A stretch of 41,303 bases of DNA from a virus. The stretch lies in the IMG/VR virus record IMGVR_UViG_3300010224_000024, one strand, 5' to 3'. Below, piece by piece: positions 1-41,303 of the stretch (its first letter is position 1; each line of letters begins with the position of its first letter). The notes below the pieces were generated by a model, which saw nothing but the letters and a program-made list of their open reading frames with translations, had not been told where the DNA came from and made no database searches. Position numbers and translations under genes: made by a program.

Positions 1-55
1 TGGCGGAGAGAGAGGCCGCTGCAAGCCTTCCGGCCCGTTCCGAATGAGTCCGGAA
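1..55. repeat. attL: left copy of the 55-bp attachment-site direct repeat
   Basis: Bases 1-55 are identical to 41249-41303. The integrase ORF begins about 75 bp inside. Confidence 0.9.
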
Positions 56-129
56 CCCGCGCCACTGCGCGATTTTGTACTCCACACCCTTCCGGCCCTT
101 TCCGGTACGATCCGGGTACGAAACATGGG

Positions 130-1281
130 TTGGAGCATGGGTTGGCTAGACCTATATCCCGATTGAGCGCCCGACAGGTCGCAACCGCGAAGGAAGGCTA
201 TCACGCGGACGGCGGCGGGCTGTACCTACAGGTTAGCTCGAGCGGCACCCGGTCATGGGTGTTGCGCTACCAGTTGCGCGGGCGGCGGCGGGAGATGGGG
301 TTGGGGCCGGCCAGCCTCGTTAGCCTGCTCGAGGCGCGGCAGGCGGCGATCAAGCACCGCAAGGACATACTGGCAGGGGTTGACCCACTCGAGGCCCGCA
401 GAGAGGCGCAGGCGAGGCCGGGAGGCATGACCTGGGGCGAGTGCAAGGCCGCGTTCATCGCCGCCCACCGGGCAGGCTGGAAGAACGAGGCGCAGGCGGG
501 CCAGTGGGAACAGTCGCTCGAGGCTTACGGGCCGAAGGATGGGGTGCTGGTCGCCGGGATAGACACGGCGGCGGTGATGGACTGCCTGCTTCCGATCTGG
601 ACCGAAAAGACGGAAACGGCGACTCGAGTCCGGGGCCGGATCGAGCGGATTCTGGACTGGGCTCGAGTGTCAGGCTACCGGGAGGGCGAGAATCCGGCCC
701 GCTGGCGGGGCCACCTGGACAAGCTGCTGCCCAAGCCGTCCAAGGTTAAGAAGGTTCGCCACCACGCGGCCATGCCCTACGCAGACGTGCCGGCGCACAT
801 GGCGGCGCTCGAGCTTCGTAAGGGGTTCTCTGCTCGAGCCTTGCGCTTCACGATCCTGACCGCCGCCAGGACCGATGAGACAACCGGCGCGACGTGGGAC
901 GAATTCGACCTCGAGGCGGGGCTGTGGACCGTGCCAGCCTCGAGAATGAAGGCGGGCCGGGAGCATACAGTTCCTCTGGCGCCTGCCGCGCTCGAGCTAT
1001 TGCGCGACCTTCCTCGAGACAAGCCGCCATTCAAGCTGTCCGAGAACGCTATGCTCTACATGGTGCAGCGCCACATGAAGCTGCCGTTTACCGTCCACGG
1101 GTTCCGCTCGAGCTTCAGCGATTGGGCGCATGAGACAACCAGCTTCCCAAACGAAGTGATCGAGATGGCGCTGGCACACACGATCAAGAACAAGGCCGAA
1201 GCGGCGTACCGGCGCGGGGCGTTGCTCGAGAAGCGCCGGCAACTCATGCAGGCTTGGGCCGATTACTTGCTCGAGAGCTAA
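130..1281 (+). CDS. int: Tyrosine recombinase / phage integrase (P4-type, DUF4102-like N-terminal arm-binding domain)
   Basis: The N-terminus LSARQVATAKEGYHADGGGLYLQVSSSGTRSWVLRY is typical of P4-family integrases. The C-terminus carries HGFRSSFSDWAHE ... LAH ... AAYRRG (R, H-x-x-R and Y catalytic pattern). The track start is TTG. A TTG at 142 (MARPISRL...) is an alternative start. Confidence 0.93.
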   Translation: MEHGLARPISRLSARQVATAKEGYHADGGGLYLQVSSSGTRSWVLRYQLRGRRREMGLGPASLVSLLEARQAAIKHRKDILAGVDPLEARREAQARPGGMTWGECKAAFIAAHRAGWKNEAQAGQWEQSLEAYGPKDGVLVAGIDTAAVMDCLLPIWTEKTETATRVRGRIERILDWARVSGYREGENPARWRGHLDKLLPKPSKVKKVRHHAAMPYADVPAHMAALELRKGFSARALRFTILTAARTDETTGATWDEFDLEAGLWTVPASRMKAGREHTVPLAPAALELLRDLPRDKPPFKLSENAMLYMVQRHMKLPFTVHGFRSSFSDWAHETTSFPNEVIEMALAHTIKNKAEAAYRRGALLEKRRQLMQAWADYLLES

Positions 1282-17629: not shown

Positions 17630-18922
17630 CTAGCCGAACTCCGAGGCAAAAGAGGTGGTGTCGAACTTGATGCCGCCGCCAGGACTGTGGTCGGCGTGGT
17701 GAACTGCGATCAGGCCGAAGGCGTCAGCGCCGTGGCTCGACCAGTCGTGATCGGGGCCAAGGCCAATCCCTCGCGCCTCGTCCTTTTTCTCGTGATACCA
17801 ACCCAACGCGTCCCGCCCCGCTTCCGTTGTGGCGGCGTTGAACCAGATAGAGGGGAACAAGCGACGGGCGGCTTCGATGCGCCTGTTGGCAGCACCGGCG
17901 CCCATGTTCGGAATAACGATGACTTCGAAGCCCGCCTCCCTGAGCGCGCTTTCGTAACTGACCTGGTAGACCTTGTCGTTAGCCGCGCCATCGTGGGGCA
18001 GCACGCACAGGGCCTTTCCGTAGCCCTTGGAGCGCAGCCACTCGACATGAGCGGACAGCGGCTGCCCCACGACTTCGTAGTAATCCAGAATGCGGACTTC
18101 GTGGCCGACAAACTGGGCGATCCAGATGGCGCAGGCATCGGCCTTGGCACCCGTTCCGCCAATGTCCCAGATGGCCCGCAACGTCATCAGTGGGTCGCGT
18201 GACACTCGACCAATGCGCCCCTCGGCCTGAGCCTCGGCGATCTGCTTGGCGTAGTACGCGCCACTAGAGACGGTGACGTAGCCGCCCTCCCAGATATGGT
18301 CGTACTGGTCAGGCTGCATGCGCAGGCAGTCTTGGCGCTCCTGCTCAAGCTCCGCAGTGAACCAAGGATTGTCGCGCCAGTTGGCCTTGACCACCTTTGC
18401 GCCCGTAGGTATTTCAGCCCCCCGGAACATCACATCGACCGGGTCTGTCTTGCGGCGGGCGTTCCAGCTAGCCCAAATCTCCGATCCTGACGCGCGAATG
18501 GTCGGACGGAGCAGGTTCAGGCTGTTGAACGAAATCGTCTGCGCCTCTTCCATCCAGGCGCGCTTGAAGCCCTCAAGCGACTTGATGGACTCGGCCGTGT
18601 GATCCTGCATGCCCTGGAAGGCAATGACGCCATCACCCGGCGTCTGGATCACTTCCGTGTAGACCTTGAAGCCGTCCTTCTCGCCAAGCCCAAGCGACTT
18701 CAGCTTGTTCTCAATCAGGCGCTTGGACGACTGCTTGAGGGTCTTTTGAACTTCTCGGATGCAGACAGACAGCAAGCCCGGTTCATACAGGCTGTCGTCA
18801 ATCAGCTTTTCGGCAAAGAAATGGGACTTGCCGGAGCCTCGACCACCCCATGCTCCCTTGTAGCGCGATGGCGGCAGTAGCGGCTCAAAGACCGCCGCCG
18901 TCTCGATCTGTAGGGTGGACAA
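17630..18922 (-). CDS. terL: Terminase large subunit (PBSX/Terminase_3-like)
   Basis: Walker A motif GAWGGRGSGKSHF, a 430-aa length, and position downstream of the small subunit. The start is apparently TTG and overlaps the end of terS. Confidence 0.9.
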   Translation of the reverse strand: MSTLQIETAAVFEPLLPPSRYKGAWGGRGSGKSHFFAEKLIDDSLYEPGLLSVCIREVQKTLKQSSKRLIENKLKSLGLGEKDGFKVYTEVIQTPGDGVIAFQGMQDHTAESIKSLEGFKRAWMEEAQTISFNSLNLLRPTIRASGSEIWASWNARRKTDPVDVMFRGAEIPTGAKVVKANWRDNPWFTAELEQERQDCLRMQPDQYDHIWEGGYVTVSSGAYYAKQIAEAQAEGRIGRVSRDPLMTLRAIWDIGGTGAKADACAIWIAQFVGHEVRILDYYEVVGQPLSAHVEWLRSKGYGKALCVLPHDGAANDKVYQVSYESALREAGFEVIVIPNMGAGAANRRIEAARRLFPSIWFNAATTEAGRDALGWYHEKKDEARGIGLGPDHDWSSHGADAFGLIAVHHADHSPGGGIKFDTTSFASEFG

Positions 18923-19271
18923 TGCGGCGCTCGATGGCAGTAATGGTGACAGGCTGATCGGGGTCGCCCGTCAGCTTCGTTTCCGTCTTGTCGGACCAGC
19001 CTTGGTTCTTCAGCCAGAAGATCGTGCCGGCCGCGTTAGGGCCAGCAAGCCTCGACTCCCAGTGATCCTCAAGCCGCGCCCTGACGGCTTTTACCGCGTC
19101 AGAAAACCCTTCCTTTTCGCCGTAGCGCAGCAGGGTTTCTCGGGTCATGCCGAGGGCCAGAGCTAGACCATTGACGGTGAACGGCTTGTCCTTGGCCTCC
19201 CTGTCGGCAAAGTACCTCTCCGCTACCTCGGTGAACTCTTCCGGGGTATCGAAGATCGGTGGGCGGGCCAT
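18885..19271 (-). CDS. terS: Terminase small subunit
   Basis: MARPPIFDTPEEFTEVAERYFADREAKDKPFTVNGLALALGMTRETLLRYGE is a typical HTH-type small-terminase N-terminus. Confidence 0.85.
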   Translation of the reverse strand: MARPPIFDTPEEFTEVAERYFADREAKDKPFTVNGLALALGMTRETLLRYGEKEGFSDAVKAVRARLEDHWESRLAGPNAAGTIFWLKNQGWSDKTETKLTGDPDQPVTITAIERRIVHPTDRDGGGL

Positions 19272-21961: not shown

Positions 21962-22570
21962 TCAAAGGGTGTCGCTGTCCCGGCTGGGCGCGCGGTGGAA
22001 ATTTCCATCCCCACCACGGCTCAGCTCGTTTTCCGAAGGAACAGCACCCCTTACCCTCAGTGTCCCACGCTGAATCTGCGAACCGCATCGACGTTCATAA
22101 AATGCCACTTGCCGGAAGGCGATGCCGTACCGCTCCCAATACTCCGAAAGGCTCTTGGCGAGACGGCGGCAGATGGCGTTGCGCAGGCGTCGGTAGGTGT
22201 TCCGATGCACTCCCAGGTCGTCCGCTAGAACCGTGTAAGGCGCAATCTCCCTGTTGAAGATGAGCATGTACAGGGCATCCCATCCGGCCACGCAGGCAAG
22301 CTCGTCGCTGTACACCTCACGCTTCACGCCACCATCCATGCAGTAGGCGATGGCGAAGGCTACGACCCACTGGCGCAGCATTGGAAGGTGGCAGGAGTCG
22401 CCGCAGTAGGCGGTTCGGGCTAGCTCCCAATTAGGAAATCCATTGCGCCAATCCGTTCGCACCATCCGGTCGGCGTCGATATGGGTTGCGGTGACGCCGC
22501 ACACCATGGCCGTATCGAAGTCATGGCCGCGCACGTCGTAGTCGCCAACTTCTTTCAGCAGCGCGTTCAT
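21962..22570 (-). CDS. Putative late-gene regulator at the Q position (HTH-containing)
   Basis: It is the last early-right gene before a ~220-bp non-coding leader and the lysis and morphogenesis genes. It has an HTH-like segment LADDLGVHRNTYRRLRNAICRRLAKSL. No confident family assignment. Confidence 0.5.
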   Translation of the reverse strand: MNALLKEVGDYDVRGHDFDTAMVCGVTATHIDADRMVRTDWRNGFPNWELARTAYCGDSCHLPMLRQWVVAFAIAYCMDGGVKREVYSDELACVAGWDALYMLIFNREIAPYTVLADDLGVHRNTYRRLRNAICRRLAKSLSEYWERYGIAFRQVAFYERRCGSQIQRGTLRVRGAVPSENELSRGGDGNFHRAPSRDSDTL

Positions 22571-23184
22571 GCGGCAGCCCTTCCGTCTCGGTAGCTAAGC
22601 AGGGAGAAAATGGCCTCTTGGCCGGTGATTTCGCCCACCACCACGGCAAGCTCTCGGGCGATGGACTCCGCGCCTTCGCGCCCGCACTGGCCCACGTCGA
22701 TCCACTCACCTCGGCGCTTGTGGTCGGCGTAGCTACGCAACATGGCTAGCTCAGCCTGTCGGGCTACGGCGCGGCTCGGAATCTTCGTGGTGAACACCCA
22801 CAGGCAATCCAACGGGTTCCCGGTGGCGATGTTGTAAAGCCGCTGCTCCGGGTGGCCGGTCATGCCAACCTTCAGGAAGTTGGCGATACCCCGCAGACCG
22901 TAGAAGCCCAAGTAGCAGTAACAGGGGCCAATCCGCATGGCGGCGACTTCCCGTGCCGCCTCTTGGGTCGTCGGCATCGTCTCCAACGCCTGACGGATGG
23001 CGTATTGCCTGATCTTGTCGTGGTCGCCATCGGGGTTCTGGAATATCAGCGTCTCGATCAGCCGCTCCGCATAGAGGCGTTGATTGCCGTCCAACCCCTC
23101 AATCGTCAGACGCTCACCCTCGTCTAGGGCTTCCAGGTAGATCGGGGAGGCGAAGGAGTCGCGCTGCTCAACGAGGAATGTCAT
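22567..23184 (-). CDS. T5orf172 (MUG113, GIY-YIG-like) domain protein, copy A
   Basis: The likely start is the ATG at 23184 (MTFLVEQRD...). The C-terminal half, CYCYLGFYG...LKVGMTGHPEQRLYNIATGNPL...GEWIDV, matches the T5orf172 pattern. Confidence 0.7.
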   Translation of the reverse strand: MTFLVEQRDSFASPIYLEALDEGERLTIEGLDGNQRLYAERLIETLIFQNPDGDHDKIRQYAIRQALETMPTTQEAAREVAAMRIGPCYCYLGFYGLRGIANFLKVGMTGHPEQRLYNIATGNPLDCLWVFTTKIPSRAVARQAELAMLRSYADHKRRGEWIDVGQCGREGAESIARELAVVVGEITGQEAIFSLLSYRDGRAAA

Positions 23185-23224
23185 GCCGACACCTCGCCTA
23201 CGGCCTGGGGGATGGTGGCGGTGG

Positions 23225-23362
23225 TCATGCCTTGCGATCCTTGAGCGCCGCAATCACGAGTGACGCAGCAAGCCAAACTGATGCGTCGGCGGTGTTCTGA
23301 CTGCCAACCAGCCACAACACGCCGAGTACGAGGCACCAAAGTTGGATCAGCCCAGTCCTCAT
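23225..23362 (-). CDS. Small two-TM membrane protein (45 aa, read by hand)
   Basis: ATGA overlap with the exonuclease stop. Translation is MRTGLIQLWCLVLGVLWLVGSQNTADASVWLAASLVIAALKDRKA. Confidence 0.45.
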   Translation of the reverse strand: MRTGLIQLWCLVLGVLWLVGSQNTADASVWLAASLVIAALKDRKA

Positions 23363-24964: not shown

Positions 24965-25507
24965 TCAGACCTCGCAGAGCTTGAAGTTTGCGAAGGAGTT
25001 AAGCGCCGCTCCCGCTACCTCGGTAAGCGACTCAACGATTGACCTTGCCGCCTGATCGGAAAGCGCGCCGACACTGACCCATTCGCCATGGACAGCATCA
25101 GCGGCCATGTGCTTGAGAAGTGCCGCCTCAACGATCAAGGCTTCTTTTTTTGTGCTGAACCAAGCTGAGTACGTCCAGAGCTTCGGCAGCGGATTGCCTG
25201 TCTTTATCCCGGCCATGCGTGCCTTCACGTTCTTCGCCACGCCGATCTTCATATGCGACGCGCGCTCGTTTTCCCCATAGAACGAAAGGTAGACGTAGGT
25301 ATGGTCGCCAGTTGACTCGCACTCCCTCAGCGCGCGGAACATCTCCGTCCGCGTTTGATCGAGATAGCCGGGCGGGAAAGGCATGCGCCTAAGAAACTCG
25401 AACAACTCATAGATCGTAGCCACATGGTCCGACGTGACCTTGTCCTTCAATTGCTGCAAGCCGTAGGCAAGGTTGTTGAAGTCGACCTCTTCAGTCGTTG
25501 CGCTCAT
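24965..25507 (-). CDS. T5orf172 (MUG113, GIY-YIG-like) domain protein, copy B
   Basis: TYVYLSFYGENERASHMKIGVAKNVKARMAGIKTGNPLPKLW...HGEWVSV aligns by eye with copy A. The gene has lower GC than its neighbours. Confidence 0.7.
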   Translation of the reverse strand: MSATTEEVDFNNLAYGLQQLKDKVTSDHVATIYELFEFLRRMPFPPGYLDQTRTEMFRALRECESTGDHTYVYLSFYGENERASHMKIGVAKNVKARMAGIKTGNPLPKLWTYSAWFSTKKEALIVEAALLKHMAADAVHGEWVSVGALSDQAARSIVESLTEVAGAALNSFANFKLCEV

Positions 25508-36355: not shown

Positions 36356-36780
36356 TGGGCAAGGGCGTCAACAAAGTCATCATCGTCGGCAACTTGGGCA
36401 ATGACCCGGAAACCCGCTACACGGCAGGCGGCACGGCCATCACGTCACTGTCTATCGCCACGTCCGAACAGTGGACCGACAAGCAGTCCGGCGAGAAGCA
36501 GGAGCGCACCGAATGGCACCGCGTGAAGCTGTTCGGCAAGCTCGCGGAAATCGCCGGCGAGTACCTGAAGAAGGGCCGCCAGGTCTATATCGAGGGCTCG
36601 CTTAGGACGGATAAGTACACCGACAAGCAGGGCGTCGAGAAGTACTCCACCGACATCATCGCCAACGAACTCCAAATGCTCGGCGGGCATGGCGAAGGCG
36701 GGGCGCGGCGGTCGCAGGATCGCGAAGCCCAAGCGCCGGCTCCTTCCTCTGACTTCGATGACTCGGACGTGCCGTTCTGA
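36355..36780 (+). CDS. ssb: Single-stranded DNA-binding protein
   Basis: [19 protein letters not shown] ... TEWHRV ... an acidic tail ending DFDDSDVPF. Confidence 0.93.
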
Positions 36781-37199
36781 TGGATGCCCTGGTTGAAAAG
36801 CCGTGCGGCAGGTGTAAGCGCATTCTGCCCGCTTCCGAGTTCAACAAGGACAAGTACGCGTCCACAGGGTTGCGCAGCCAGTGCAAGGACTGCATGGCAA
36901 TTGATCGCAGGCAGCGCGCCGAATACTACCGCGCGTGGCGACAAAAGCCCGTGGTTCGCGCTTGGTACAGACGCTACAGGAGCGAGCGGGCCTCGGCTGA
37001 GAAGATCAAGCGAGATGCACGCAATGCAGCGCGCTCCTTGGAGCGCCAGCCTTGCGAAGTATGCGGGGCTCAAAAGGCCCAGGCGCACCACGACGACTAC
37101 AGCAAACCGCTGGACGTTCGGTGGCTATGCACAACCCATCACGCGGAATGGCACAAGCACAACACGCCAGTCTGCCCGGAACAGGAGCAAGCAGCATGA
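36780..37199 (+). CDS. HNH-type endonuclease-like zinc-finger protein
   Basis: CGRCKR...C.DC near the N-terminus and CEVCGAQKAQAHHDDYSKPLDVRWLCTTHHAEWH near the C-terminus. Confidence 0.65.
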   Translation: MDALVEKPCGRCKRILPASEFNKDKYASTGLRSQCKDCMAIDRRQRAEYYRAWRQKPVVRAWYRRYRSERASAEKIKRDARNAARSLERQPCEVCGAQKAQAHHDDYSKPLDVRWLCTTHHAEWHKHNTPVCPEQEQAA

Positions 37200-40750: not shown

Positions 40751-40978
40751 GTGATGCTTTGCTTAATCGGCCTGCACCGGTGGAAGCCCAAGTGCAGTCA
40801 ATTCACGATATGGGCCGATCCCTGGGGTTTGTCTGCGCTCTACAGCATGCGCAGTGCGCTCCGAAGCATTGGCCATGACCCAGGCCCTATGCCCAACTTG
40901 TTCAAGATCGGCTGGGCTCCATCCGGGAAGGTCTGCACAAGATGCGGACTTCGCAAACACAAGAAGGTGACGCCGTGA
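40751..40978 (+). CDS. Hypothetical protein, DUF1660-like
   Basis: The N-terminal CLIGLHRWKPKC and a C-terminal C..C pair resemble the small prophage DUF1660 proteins. The call is weak. Confidence 0.45.
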   Translation: MMLCLIGLHRWKPKCSQFTIWADPWGLSALYSMRSALRSIGHDPGPMPNLFKIGWAPSGKVCTRCGLRKHKKVTP

Positions 40979-41175
40979 GCGCCGTACTACTACCTCGCCG
41001 AGAGGTCGAGAAGCGCGTGGGCCTGAAGCGGTCCGCCATCTACGACCGCATGGCCCGAGGAACCTTCCCCAAGCCCATCCACGACACCGAGAGCGCGACC
41101 GTCTGGTGGCTCGAGTCGGACGTTGATTCGTGGGTCCAGGCCCGCATCGACGCCTCGAGAAAGCAGGCTGCGTGA
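40975..41175 (+). CDS. xis: AlpA-family excisionase / transcriptional regulator
   Basis: LLPRREVEKRVGLKRSAIYDRMARGTFPKPIHDTESATVWWLESDVDSW matches the AlpA/Xis HTH pattern. It is the last gene before attR. The likely GTG start at 40975 overlaps the upstream stop. Confidence 0.82.
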   Translation: MSAVLLPRREVEKRVGLKRSAIYDRMARGTFPKPIHDTESATVWWLESDVDSWVQARIDASRKQAA

Positions 41176-41211
41176 CATGGGTAGAGTGGTGGGTTGGGAT
41201 ATTGCAGGCAA

Positions 41212-41240
41212 GAAAAAAGCCGCTAGATCAGCGGCTTAAT
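41212..41240 (-). terminator. Rho-independent terminator just inside attR (strongest on the minus strand)
   Basis: Stem AAGCCGCT / AGCGGCTT (41217-41224 / 41230-41237). On the minus strand the stem is followed by TTTTTTCTT. On the plus strand it also closes the xis operon, with a weaker T tract. Confidence 0.7.
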
Positions 41241-41248
41241 TCGGCGTT

Positions 41249-41303
41249 TGGCGGAGAGAGAGGCCGCTGCAAGCCTTCCGGCCCGTTCCGAATGAGTCCG
41301 GAA
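41249..41303. repeat. attR: right copy of the 55-bp attachment-site direct repeat
   Basis: Identical to bases 1-55. Confidence 0.9.

Follow-up and report, generated by a model that had tools for sequence, protein, structure and literature searches.

A CTCGAG array in the integrase and excisionase genes of a P22-like phage, apparently selected as a DNA word and carried with the lysogeny module

The subject of this study is an array of the six-base palindrome CTCGAG in the lysogeny module of a virus, IMG/VR record IMGVR_UViG_3300010224_000024, analysed over its whole length of 41,303 nucleotides (hereafter the window). All 17 copies of the word in the window lie within one module made of an excisionase/regulator gene (xis), the phage attachment site (attP), and an integrase gene (int), where the array spans 1.47 kb, while the remaining ~39.8 kb has none. 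Comparison with relatives shows an array that is positively selected, belongs to xis-attP-int, and travels with this module among P22-like phages of Rhodanobacter-type hosts. We give roughly an even chance to the broader interpretation that the array is a purpose-built cis-element, i.e. a restriction-type palindrome recruited as a positive signal and read by a host enzyme or by Xis/Int to decide integration or excision. The genes and sites concerned are:

130 to 1281, plus strand: P4-type tyrosine integrase gene (int), open reading frame (ORF) from TTG 130, 383 amino acids
237 to 1275, unstranded: array of 15 exact CTCGAG hexamers in the int coding sequence, with irregular gaps of 22–146 bp
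40977 to 41175, plus strand: AlpA-family excisionase/regulator gene (xis), Phage_AlpA, 66–77 amino acids
41110 to 41159, unstranded: two CTCGAG sites, at 41110 and 41154, in the 3' part of xis

A sequence-only reading of this DNA had already pointed to CTCGAG in int, and most of its description stands. The 15 copies start at 237, 328, 388, 517, 623, 662, 808, 833, 910, 939, 991, 1013, 1107, 1225, and 1270, occupy all codon phases (8, 4, and 3 sites in phases 0, 1, and 2, respectively), and compare with a base-composition expectation of 0.40, i.e. fewer than one site, as had been estimated. All 8 Leu-Glu dipeptides of the mature Int are indeed written CTC-GAG, and the other 7 sites have the spellings that had been listed, built from TCG-AGC (Ser-Ser) or from the Arg codons CGA/AGA. 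That reading correctly located a cluster of 15 sites in int but confined it to this gene, and the array extends beyond int to the xis-attP-int module. The codon-shuffled nulls it had called for never reach 15 sites in 20,000 trials each; specifically, a synonymous codon shuffle within int gives 2.0 ± 1.2 sites and drawing the int codons from the usage of the phage itself gives 1.5 ± 1.1, with a maximum of 8 under both, and chance or composition is thereby ruled out.

The word is found at 15 of the 18 positions where the Int protein permits it (hereafter permissive positions), the three unused ones being a TTG-GAG at the start of the ORF, one that overlaps a used site, and one Ile-Ser-Arg. The gene is nearly devoid of one-base variants of CTCGAG, no symmetric consensus or extended motif appears in the flanks of its sites, and the exact hexamer is what counts. 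The absence of regular spacing also stood up to testing, with no codon or helical periodicity among the int sites (Rayleigh test at 10.5 bp, P ~0.4). No promoter-like elements overlap the array, and int has no excess mRNA structure (minimum free energy z = −0.86 vs synonymous shuffles).

The xis gene uses 2 of its 3 permissive positions, and because the window is circular (see below) these sites join those of int in one contiguous module of ~1.5 kb. Each of the 17 sites falls within the coding sequence of one of these two genes, which share one orientation, and the intergenic attP region has none. The P22-like backbone, by contrast, uses CTCGAG at 0 of 221 permissive positions in 71 ORFs (11,930 codons; Markov expectation 8.6), and the difference from the 17 of 21 in int and xis together is highly significant (Fisher P ~1e-22). 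Permissive positions are also denser in the integrase, with 4.7 per 100 residues vs 1.85 in the backbone. A dinucleotide-preserving shuffle of the whole window yields 15.6 CTCGAG in total, close to the 17 observed, so the striking feature is the distribution of the sites and not their overall number.

Arrays of this kind occur only in a clade of integrases with at least 88% identity to the window Int. At least 19 distinct database proteins fall in this clade, and the clade integrases listed below have 7–15 sites each. Among ~200 homologous integrase loci at 27–76% identity, taken from genomes, viral contigs, and metagenomes, we find 0–3 CTCGAG, mostly 0, and few Leu-Glu dipeptides, which rules out that P4-type integrases in general carry such arrays. 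Mixed-composition palindromes other than CTCGAG form no clusters anywhere in 1.4 Mb of related integrase loci. The counts in the clade, with those for the phage DNA around the module, are as follows:

Window: 15 sites in int, 2 in xis
L081: 12 sites in int, 0 in 3 kb of phage
L333/L334: 12 sites in int; L333 has 0 in 10 kb of phage
L205: 12 sites in int
L335/L336: 11 sites in int, 2 in xis; L335 has 0 in 18 kb
L206: 10 sites in int
L203/L204: 7 sites in int; L203 has 1 in 10 kb
L095 (N-terminal half of int only): 7 sites, 3 in xis

Clade integrases occur on at least five different phage backbones, whose proteins are 27–70% identical to those of the window and some of which carry Erf/YqaJ and not RecT. 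The other array-bearing backbones are almost free of sites (1 CTCGAG in ~44 kb), mosaic junctions lie directly at the edges of the module, and Int and Xis are the only proteins common to all array-bearing phages. Since these backbones differ, the gene for any reader of the array must lie in the host or in the module itself. Integrated copies are flanked by Rhodanobacteraceae DNA, with a Ppx protein 90% identical to that of Rhodanobacter sp. Rhodanobacter-type host chromosomes use CTCGAG at only 6 of 355 permissive positions (1.7%), ruling out amelioration to the host, while related phages and prophage regions use it at 22 of 590; transfer from a CTCGAG-rich genome is likewise ruled out, as the flanking backbones examined are all but site-free. 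In the outgroup phage L207, whose Int is 76% identical and has no CTCGAG, a C5 DNA methylase gene lies directly upstream of int (105–920).

Clade members diverge from the window by a synonymous divergence (dS) of 0.42–0.88, with a ratio of nonsynonymous to synonymous divergence (dN/dS) of 0.06–0.08, which indicates a functional integrase of considerable age. Over this distance, five relatives have no site that the window lacks, against a background 6-mer identity of 0.3–0.57. The int sites shared with the window are 12/12 in L081, 12/12 in L205, 10/10 in L206, and 7/7 in L203, for which the background identity of arbitrary 6-mers is 0.34–0.57 (binomial P for the shared-site excess, 1e-3 to 5e-6), and 5 sites are intact in all 7 full-length clade members. 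The comparison of orthologues that had been proposed thus favours conservation, as close relatives keep the sites at synonymous positions despite a dS of about 0.4–0.9.

Outgroups at 70–76% identity have CTCGAG at none of the 15 int positions. Clade members that do not carry a given site usually keep outgroup-like codons or residues there (HE/QE, LD, LA, VA), so most of the differences are gains, with few one-base losses in L081/L333 (CTTGAG, CTCGAT, ATCGAG). Some gains are synonymous and use rare Arg codons, e.g. ACG-CGC-GTG to ACT-CGA-GTC. Others replace residues (LD, LA, QE, or HE to LE; AKA to ARA; TAA to SSS), and several required 2–3 substitutions within six bases. The Int protein itself has been reshaped to carry CTCGAG. 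In xis, relatives carry 1–3 copies at positions that coincide only partly; for example, a site at Met-Ala-Arg-Gly is present in L095 and L205 and absent in the window, while that at 41154 is window-specific. These differences between lineages imply that accumulation is ongoing in several of them, with placement wherever the code allows. Because coding-compatible positions have been filled, and proteins altered to make more of them, selection acts on copy number or density and not on precise geometry. The earlier proposal that the DNA word, and not the protein, is under selection is borne out by the codon nulls, the conservation among orthologues, the replacement gains, and the 0 of 221 positions used elsewhere; we regard selection on the word CTCGAG as well supported by these comparisons.

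The backbone deals with the same dipeptide very differently. Its 44 Leu-Glu are written CTT-GAG (17), CTG-GAA (11), TTG-GAG (7), CTG-GAG (3), and in other ways, and never as CTC-GAG. The CTT codon, otherwise rare and used here despite the high GC content, sidesteps both CTCGAG and CTGGAG. About a dozen GC-rich palindromes besides CTCGAG are also avoided in the backbone, including (observed vs Markov-expected) CCGCGG (0/19.8), GAGCTC (0/16.2), CTGCAG (0/11.5), GGGCCC (0/10.4), CACGTG (0/8.6), CGATCG (2/22.7), TGGCCA (3/20.3), and AGGCCT (2/17.2), a pattern suggesting that the phage meets a wide range of restriction systems. Taken over the 31 other GC-rich palindromic hexamers, usage in int and xis together is 4 of ~217 permissive positions. 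For example, GCGCGC is found at 0 of 16 such positions in the two genes, compared with a backbone rate of 21%, and GAGCTC is absent from the window altogether. The module is therefore under restriction pressure itself, with CTCGAG as a singular, sign-reversed exception.

We also scanned viral contigs for the word, requiring three close copies of CTCGAG. The scan returned many high-GC contigs (among L210–L329) with 3–7 CTCGAG per kb genome-wide, nearly all as Leu-Glu CTC-GAG. In most of these GAGCTC is equally abundant and CTGGAG/CTCCAG is near zero, which points to a by-product of codon preference and CTGGAG avoidance. Three contigs (L316, L288, and L226) have no GAGCTC or nearly none, and in these the richness may be word-specific. 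A serine integrase cluster in L228 was considered as a second integrase family with an array and ruled out, its context being generally site-rich. Two clusters stand in contigs otherwise free of the word, i.e. 6 CTCGAG in 160 nt at the 5' end of a large-terminase gene (L235, 5412–5574), where 6 of 8 permissive positions are used in the first 90 codons and 0 of 6 further in, and 8 CTCGAG in 550 nt of coding DNA (L220, 1002–1559). These two may be different, pac-like elements.

The first 55 bases of the window are identical to the last 55 (1–55 = 41249–41303), an exact terminal overlap that indicates a complete circular assembly with a unit of 41,248 bp. Pfam matches include the P22 coat protein, P22 portal, gp3 small terminase, large terminase, and gp4- and gp10-like proteins, as well as a lysozyme, an S24-peptidase CI-type repressor, RecT, SSB, and an HNH-like nuclease; the virus is, by this gene content, a P22-like temperate podovirus. 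The integrase has the Pfam domains Arm-DNA-bind_3, Phage_int_M, and Phage_integrase, i.e. the N-terminal arm-binding, central, and C-terminal tyrosine-recombinase catalytic domains of the P4-type architecture, is under purifying selection, and has relatives seen integrated beside host genes. Its start is probably TTG 163, as the database protein P0247 is identical to it from residue 12. The xis ORF opens at 40942, and alignment with relatives points to GTG 40977 as its start; it reads toward int, with ~200 bp of non-coding DNA between. The remaining features are:

41176 to 41303, unstranded: left part of the attP region, without CTCGAG; TGGCGGAGAGAGAGG starts at 41249
1 to 129, unstranded: right part of the attP region, up to the int start, without CTCGAG
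41237 to 41217, minus strand: intrinsic terminator in the left attP region
58 to 71, plus strand: hairpin in the right attP region
1282 to 41109, unstranded: P22-like backbone of 71 ORFs, without CTCGAG

The phage/host junction word TGGCGGAGAGAGAGG was placed from the integrated relative L203 and corresponds to window positions 1–15 and 41249–41263. Only the sites at 41110, 41154, and 237 are within ~250 bp of it, and 14 of 17 are >235 bp from the core. In L203 (4400–4480), the host side pairs with TGGCGGAGAGAGAGG in a perfect terminator-like hairpin of ~70 nt. The word also resembles the reverse complement of a tRNA 3' end; a tRNA attachment site was set aside all the same, as ARAGORN finds no tRNA and the integrated relative has the long host hairpin. 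A direct repeat, CATGGGTTGG, occurs twice at 124–145, straddles the start of the int ORF, and is kept even in the outgroup L209 at 75% identity, and repeats containing TTCCGG lie between the core and int (within 27–106); both are candidate Int arm-type or regulatory sites. At its other end, the stop codon of int overlaps that of the last minus-strand late gene (1278–1520), at 1278–1281, and late transcription may run antisense through all of int, to the strong terminator across attP. In the backbone, the packaging genes TerL (17630–18922) and gp3-like TerS (18885–19271) have no CTCGAG and are ~17 kb from the array. Two T5orf172/MUG113 (GIY-YIG-like) proteins and one HNH/endonuclease VII-like protein are encoded at 22567–23253, 24965–25507, and 36780–37199, and the N-terminus of the HNH/endonuclease VII-like protein matches a Lar-like restriction-alleviation PHROG.

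How does the array compare with what has been described? Like the sites known from restriction-site avoidance, CTCGAG is a six-base, Type II-style palindrome, and the window backbone shows classic avoidance; int and xis are opposite in sign, with 17 of 21 permissive positions used and conserved. The pac site of phage P1 was reportedly described by Sternberg and Coulby in 1990 as a cluster of Dam-methylatable hexamers in pacA that gates packaging cleavage. It resembles the array in being a cluster of methylatable, palindrome-containing hexamers in phage coding sequence, used in P1 as a cis-acting signal, but it is compact (~160 bp, 7 sites, inside a terminase gene), whereas the 17 sites of the window are spread over a lysogeny module of ~1.5 kb and travel with int, not with packaging genes. 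A pac site was also ruled out by the distance to the packaging genes, 17 kb from the array. A 2025 review of restriction-modification describes site removal and the need of phage P1 for Dam methylation at pac, and no enrichment of this kind (PMC12707154).

SeqA-bound GATC clusters and Dam-gated IS10/Tn10 couple a DNA transaction, initiation or transposition, to replication through methylation of a palindrome, a logic that we propose for int/xis. However, their sites are in origins or promoters and are few or closely phased, while those of the window fill gene bodies and are unphased, with gaps of 22–146 bp, a Rayleigh P of ~0.4, and every site intragenic. Transcripts enriched in MazF-type motifs likewise concentrate a short exact word in particular genes and have it rare elsewhere, but these motifs are non-palindromic and act in RNA, and the window shows no evidence of an RNA-level reader. 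Arm-type Int/Xis sites of attachment regions share the genomic neighbourhood and the candidate proteins. They are asymmetric, fixed, and less than ~250 bp from the core, whereas the word in the window is a perfect palindrome that lies mostly deep in int, with 3 of 17 sites near the junction word and positions in xis that vary. Genome-wide words (uptake sequences, Chi, codon by-products) do not fit either, as the sites are confined to 1.5 kb and the codon nulls give 1.5–2.0. Each of the nearest described phenomena thus departs from the array in at least one defining feature tested here, and the array is outside the known kinds. The sequence-only reading knew of no mechanism that would explain it, and our literature searches found nothing relevant. 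The roles it had offered, i.e. methylation-sensitive control of int, a binding array for a silencing or directionality factor, and a restriction target or decoy, are among the possibilities weighed below.

We infer that the reader of CTCGAG is a protein that recognises duplex DNA and is strictly specific for this six-base palindrome, and the most likely candidate, which we put forward tentatively, is a host XhoI/PaeR7I-type modification or restriction-modification enzyme that would gate the lysogeny module. The exact word, the near absence of one-base variants, and the lack of a flanking consensus fit the all-or-none specificity typical of such enzymes, and a host enzyme is favoured because the same class of agent explains the purging of palindromes elsewhere in these phages. 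The REBASE enzymes XhoI and XpaI, both specific for CTCGAG, come from Xanthomonas, a genus related to the host. With such a reader, int-xis alone in the genome could exist in different states (methylated, hemimethylated, unmethylated, or enzyme-bound), and its methylation or occupancy would inform integration and excision, i.e. act as an epigenetic gate, while the lytic genes would stay blind to the enzyme. The gating step, including how methylation or occupancy alters the expression or activity of Int/Xis, is conjecture. No DNA methyltransferase, restriction endonuclease, or known defence gene was found in the phage (Pfam, PHROGs, NCBIfam, and PADLOC; ~50 ORFs).

Several points weigh against a host enzyme. 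No CTCGAG methyltransferase or endonuclease turned up in ~80 kb of host-type DNA, which was examined for word usage only. Restriction-modification systems are patchy and short-lived, and an array kept over near-saturating synonymous divergence argues for a more stable reader. Unmodified sites are a liability in any cell with the cognate endonuclease. To our knowledge, methylation switches occur only in promoters, origins, or pac sites and not across 1.1 kb of coding sequence, and we know of no gene-body methylation reader in these bacteria. Lastly, the non-coding attP region holds no CTCGAG.

The stability of the array would be easier to understand if the module encoded its own reader, such as the AlpA-type Xis or the arm-binding domain of Int; this is the main rival, though one that we consider doubtful. 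The array would then be a bank of high-affinity cis sites that titrates, or is coated by, Xis/Int and so sets an excision threshold or silences int/xis. Sites and reader would be co-inherited as a self-contained unit, which explains upkeep over a dS of ~0.9 and agrees with Int and Xis alone being common to all array-bearing phages. The sites are in both genes flanking attP, and a dose-dependent gain of sites suits titration or coating. Recombination directionality factors often also repress int, as with P4 Vis and KplE1 TorI. Strict reading of so short a word has a precedent in Pseudomonas AlpA, a monomer of which reads a 6-bp element with every base mattering (PMC9371919). However, nothing would lead a monomeric helix-turn-helix to favour a palindrome, a class to which only 1 in 64 hexamers belongs a priori, and a 6-bp palindrome cannot be contacted by two such motifs together. 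The geometry is no better, as the non-coding attP arms, where Int/Xis must act, have no sites, 14 of 17 sites are >235 bp from the core, and those in xis are opportunistic and not fixed among relatives.

We find it unlikely that the array is a target of programmed cleavage, with all restriction sensitivity, and hence double-strand breaks, concentrated in the one region dispensable for lytic growth so that an endonuclease removes the lysogeny module and leaves the 39.8-kb backbone with compatible TCGA ends or, alternatively, so that breaks create a recombination hot spot driving module exchange. The contrast of 17 sites in 1.5 kb with none in 39.8 kb, the mosaic module with its junctions at the edges, and the RecT or Erf recombination genes of these phages would all suit such a target, and more sites would make cutting surer, in line with saturation. 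Yet the sites are gone from any genome in which the module has been lost or converted, and no route to a selected increase is visible; break repair from a homologous copy erodes sites and does not add them, and a phage with zero sites does at least as well in every scenario constructed. A lysogeny veto, an escape pod, an enzyme sponge, and break-induced replication were set aside, as the genomes that benefit do not retain the sites. Quite unlikely in our view is a word read in RNA, in which CUCGAG would be the motif of a MazF-like endoribonuclease or an RNA-binding protein that keeps xis-int transcripts short-lived, with all other phage transcripts, from both strands, free of it. Transcripts enriched in the cleavage motif of a toxin are known for MazF-mt3, MazF-mt7, and MazF-hw, and the location of 17 of 17 sites inside two co-oriented coding regions, none of them intergenic, agrees with this; the symmetry of the word precludes a strand test. 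It leaves the palindromy unexplained, however, and the mRNA has no excess structure, the upstream co-transcribed early genes do not carry the motif, and library scans of ~50 ORFs gave no candidate sequence-specific endoribonuclease in the phage. Very unlikely is an array that is a by-product without function, whether of codon usage, of CTGGAG avoidance, of amelioration toward a donor or host rich in the word, of biased repair, or of hitch-hiking. Codon usage or CTGGAG avoidance does account for many CTCGAG-rich viral contigs, which reach 3–7 sites per kb through CTC/GAG preference, but not for int: GAGCTC usually matches CTCGAG in those contigs and is absent here, CTC makes up only 11 of 41 int Leu codons, and the 7 int sites of phases 1 and 2 rely on the rare codons CGA or AGA. 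Leu-Glu dipeptides have been newly created, and the sites are conserved far above background. The low use of the word in host-type chromosomes and in related phages and prophage regions, together with flanking backbones that are practically site-free, goes against amelioration, and transversions, which very-short-patch-type repair cannot produce, are frequent among the changes.

In phage genomics, short palindromes are seen as a burden to be removed by selection; here both signs of selection act on one word within a single genome, with CTCGAG purged from ~40 kb and saturating the two genes for chromosome entry and exit at the price of altered amino acids. How large a fraction of the coding-permissive positions a word occupies is a statistic that could be computed for all phage genomes in the search for other word-saturated genes. 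Should the array be the cis-element that we propose, it would represent the first restriction-type site to be positively selected in a phage, and lysogeny would be coupled in a new way to the epigenetic or defence state of the host. If the reader is a methyltransferase, the array would be reclassified under control by methylation-site clusters; if it is Xis or Int, it would reveal a new form of self-titration within recombination modules. With a host enzyme as the reader, lysogeny in these phages would be wired to the epigenetic identity of the host, which would matter for host range, prophage stability, and phage-defence conflicts.

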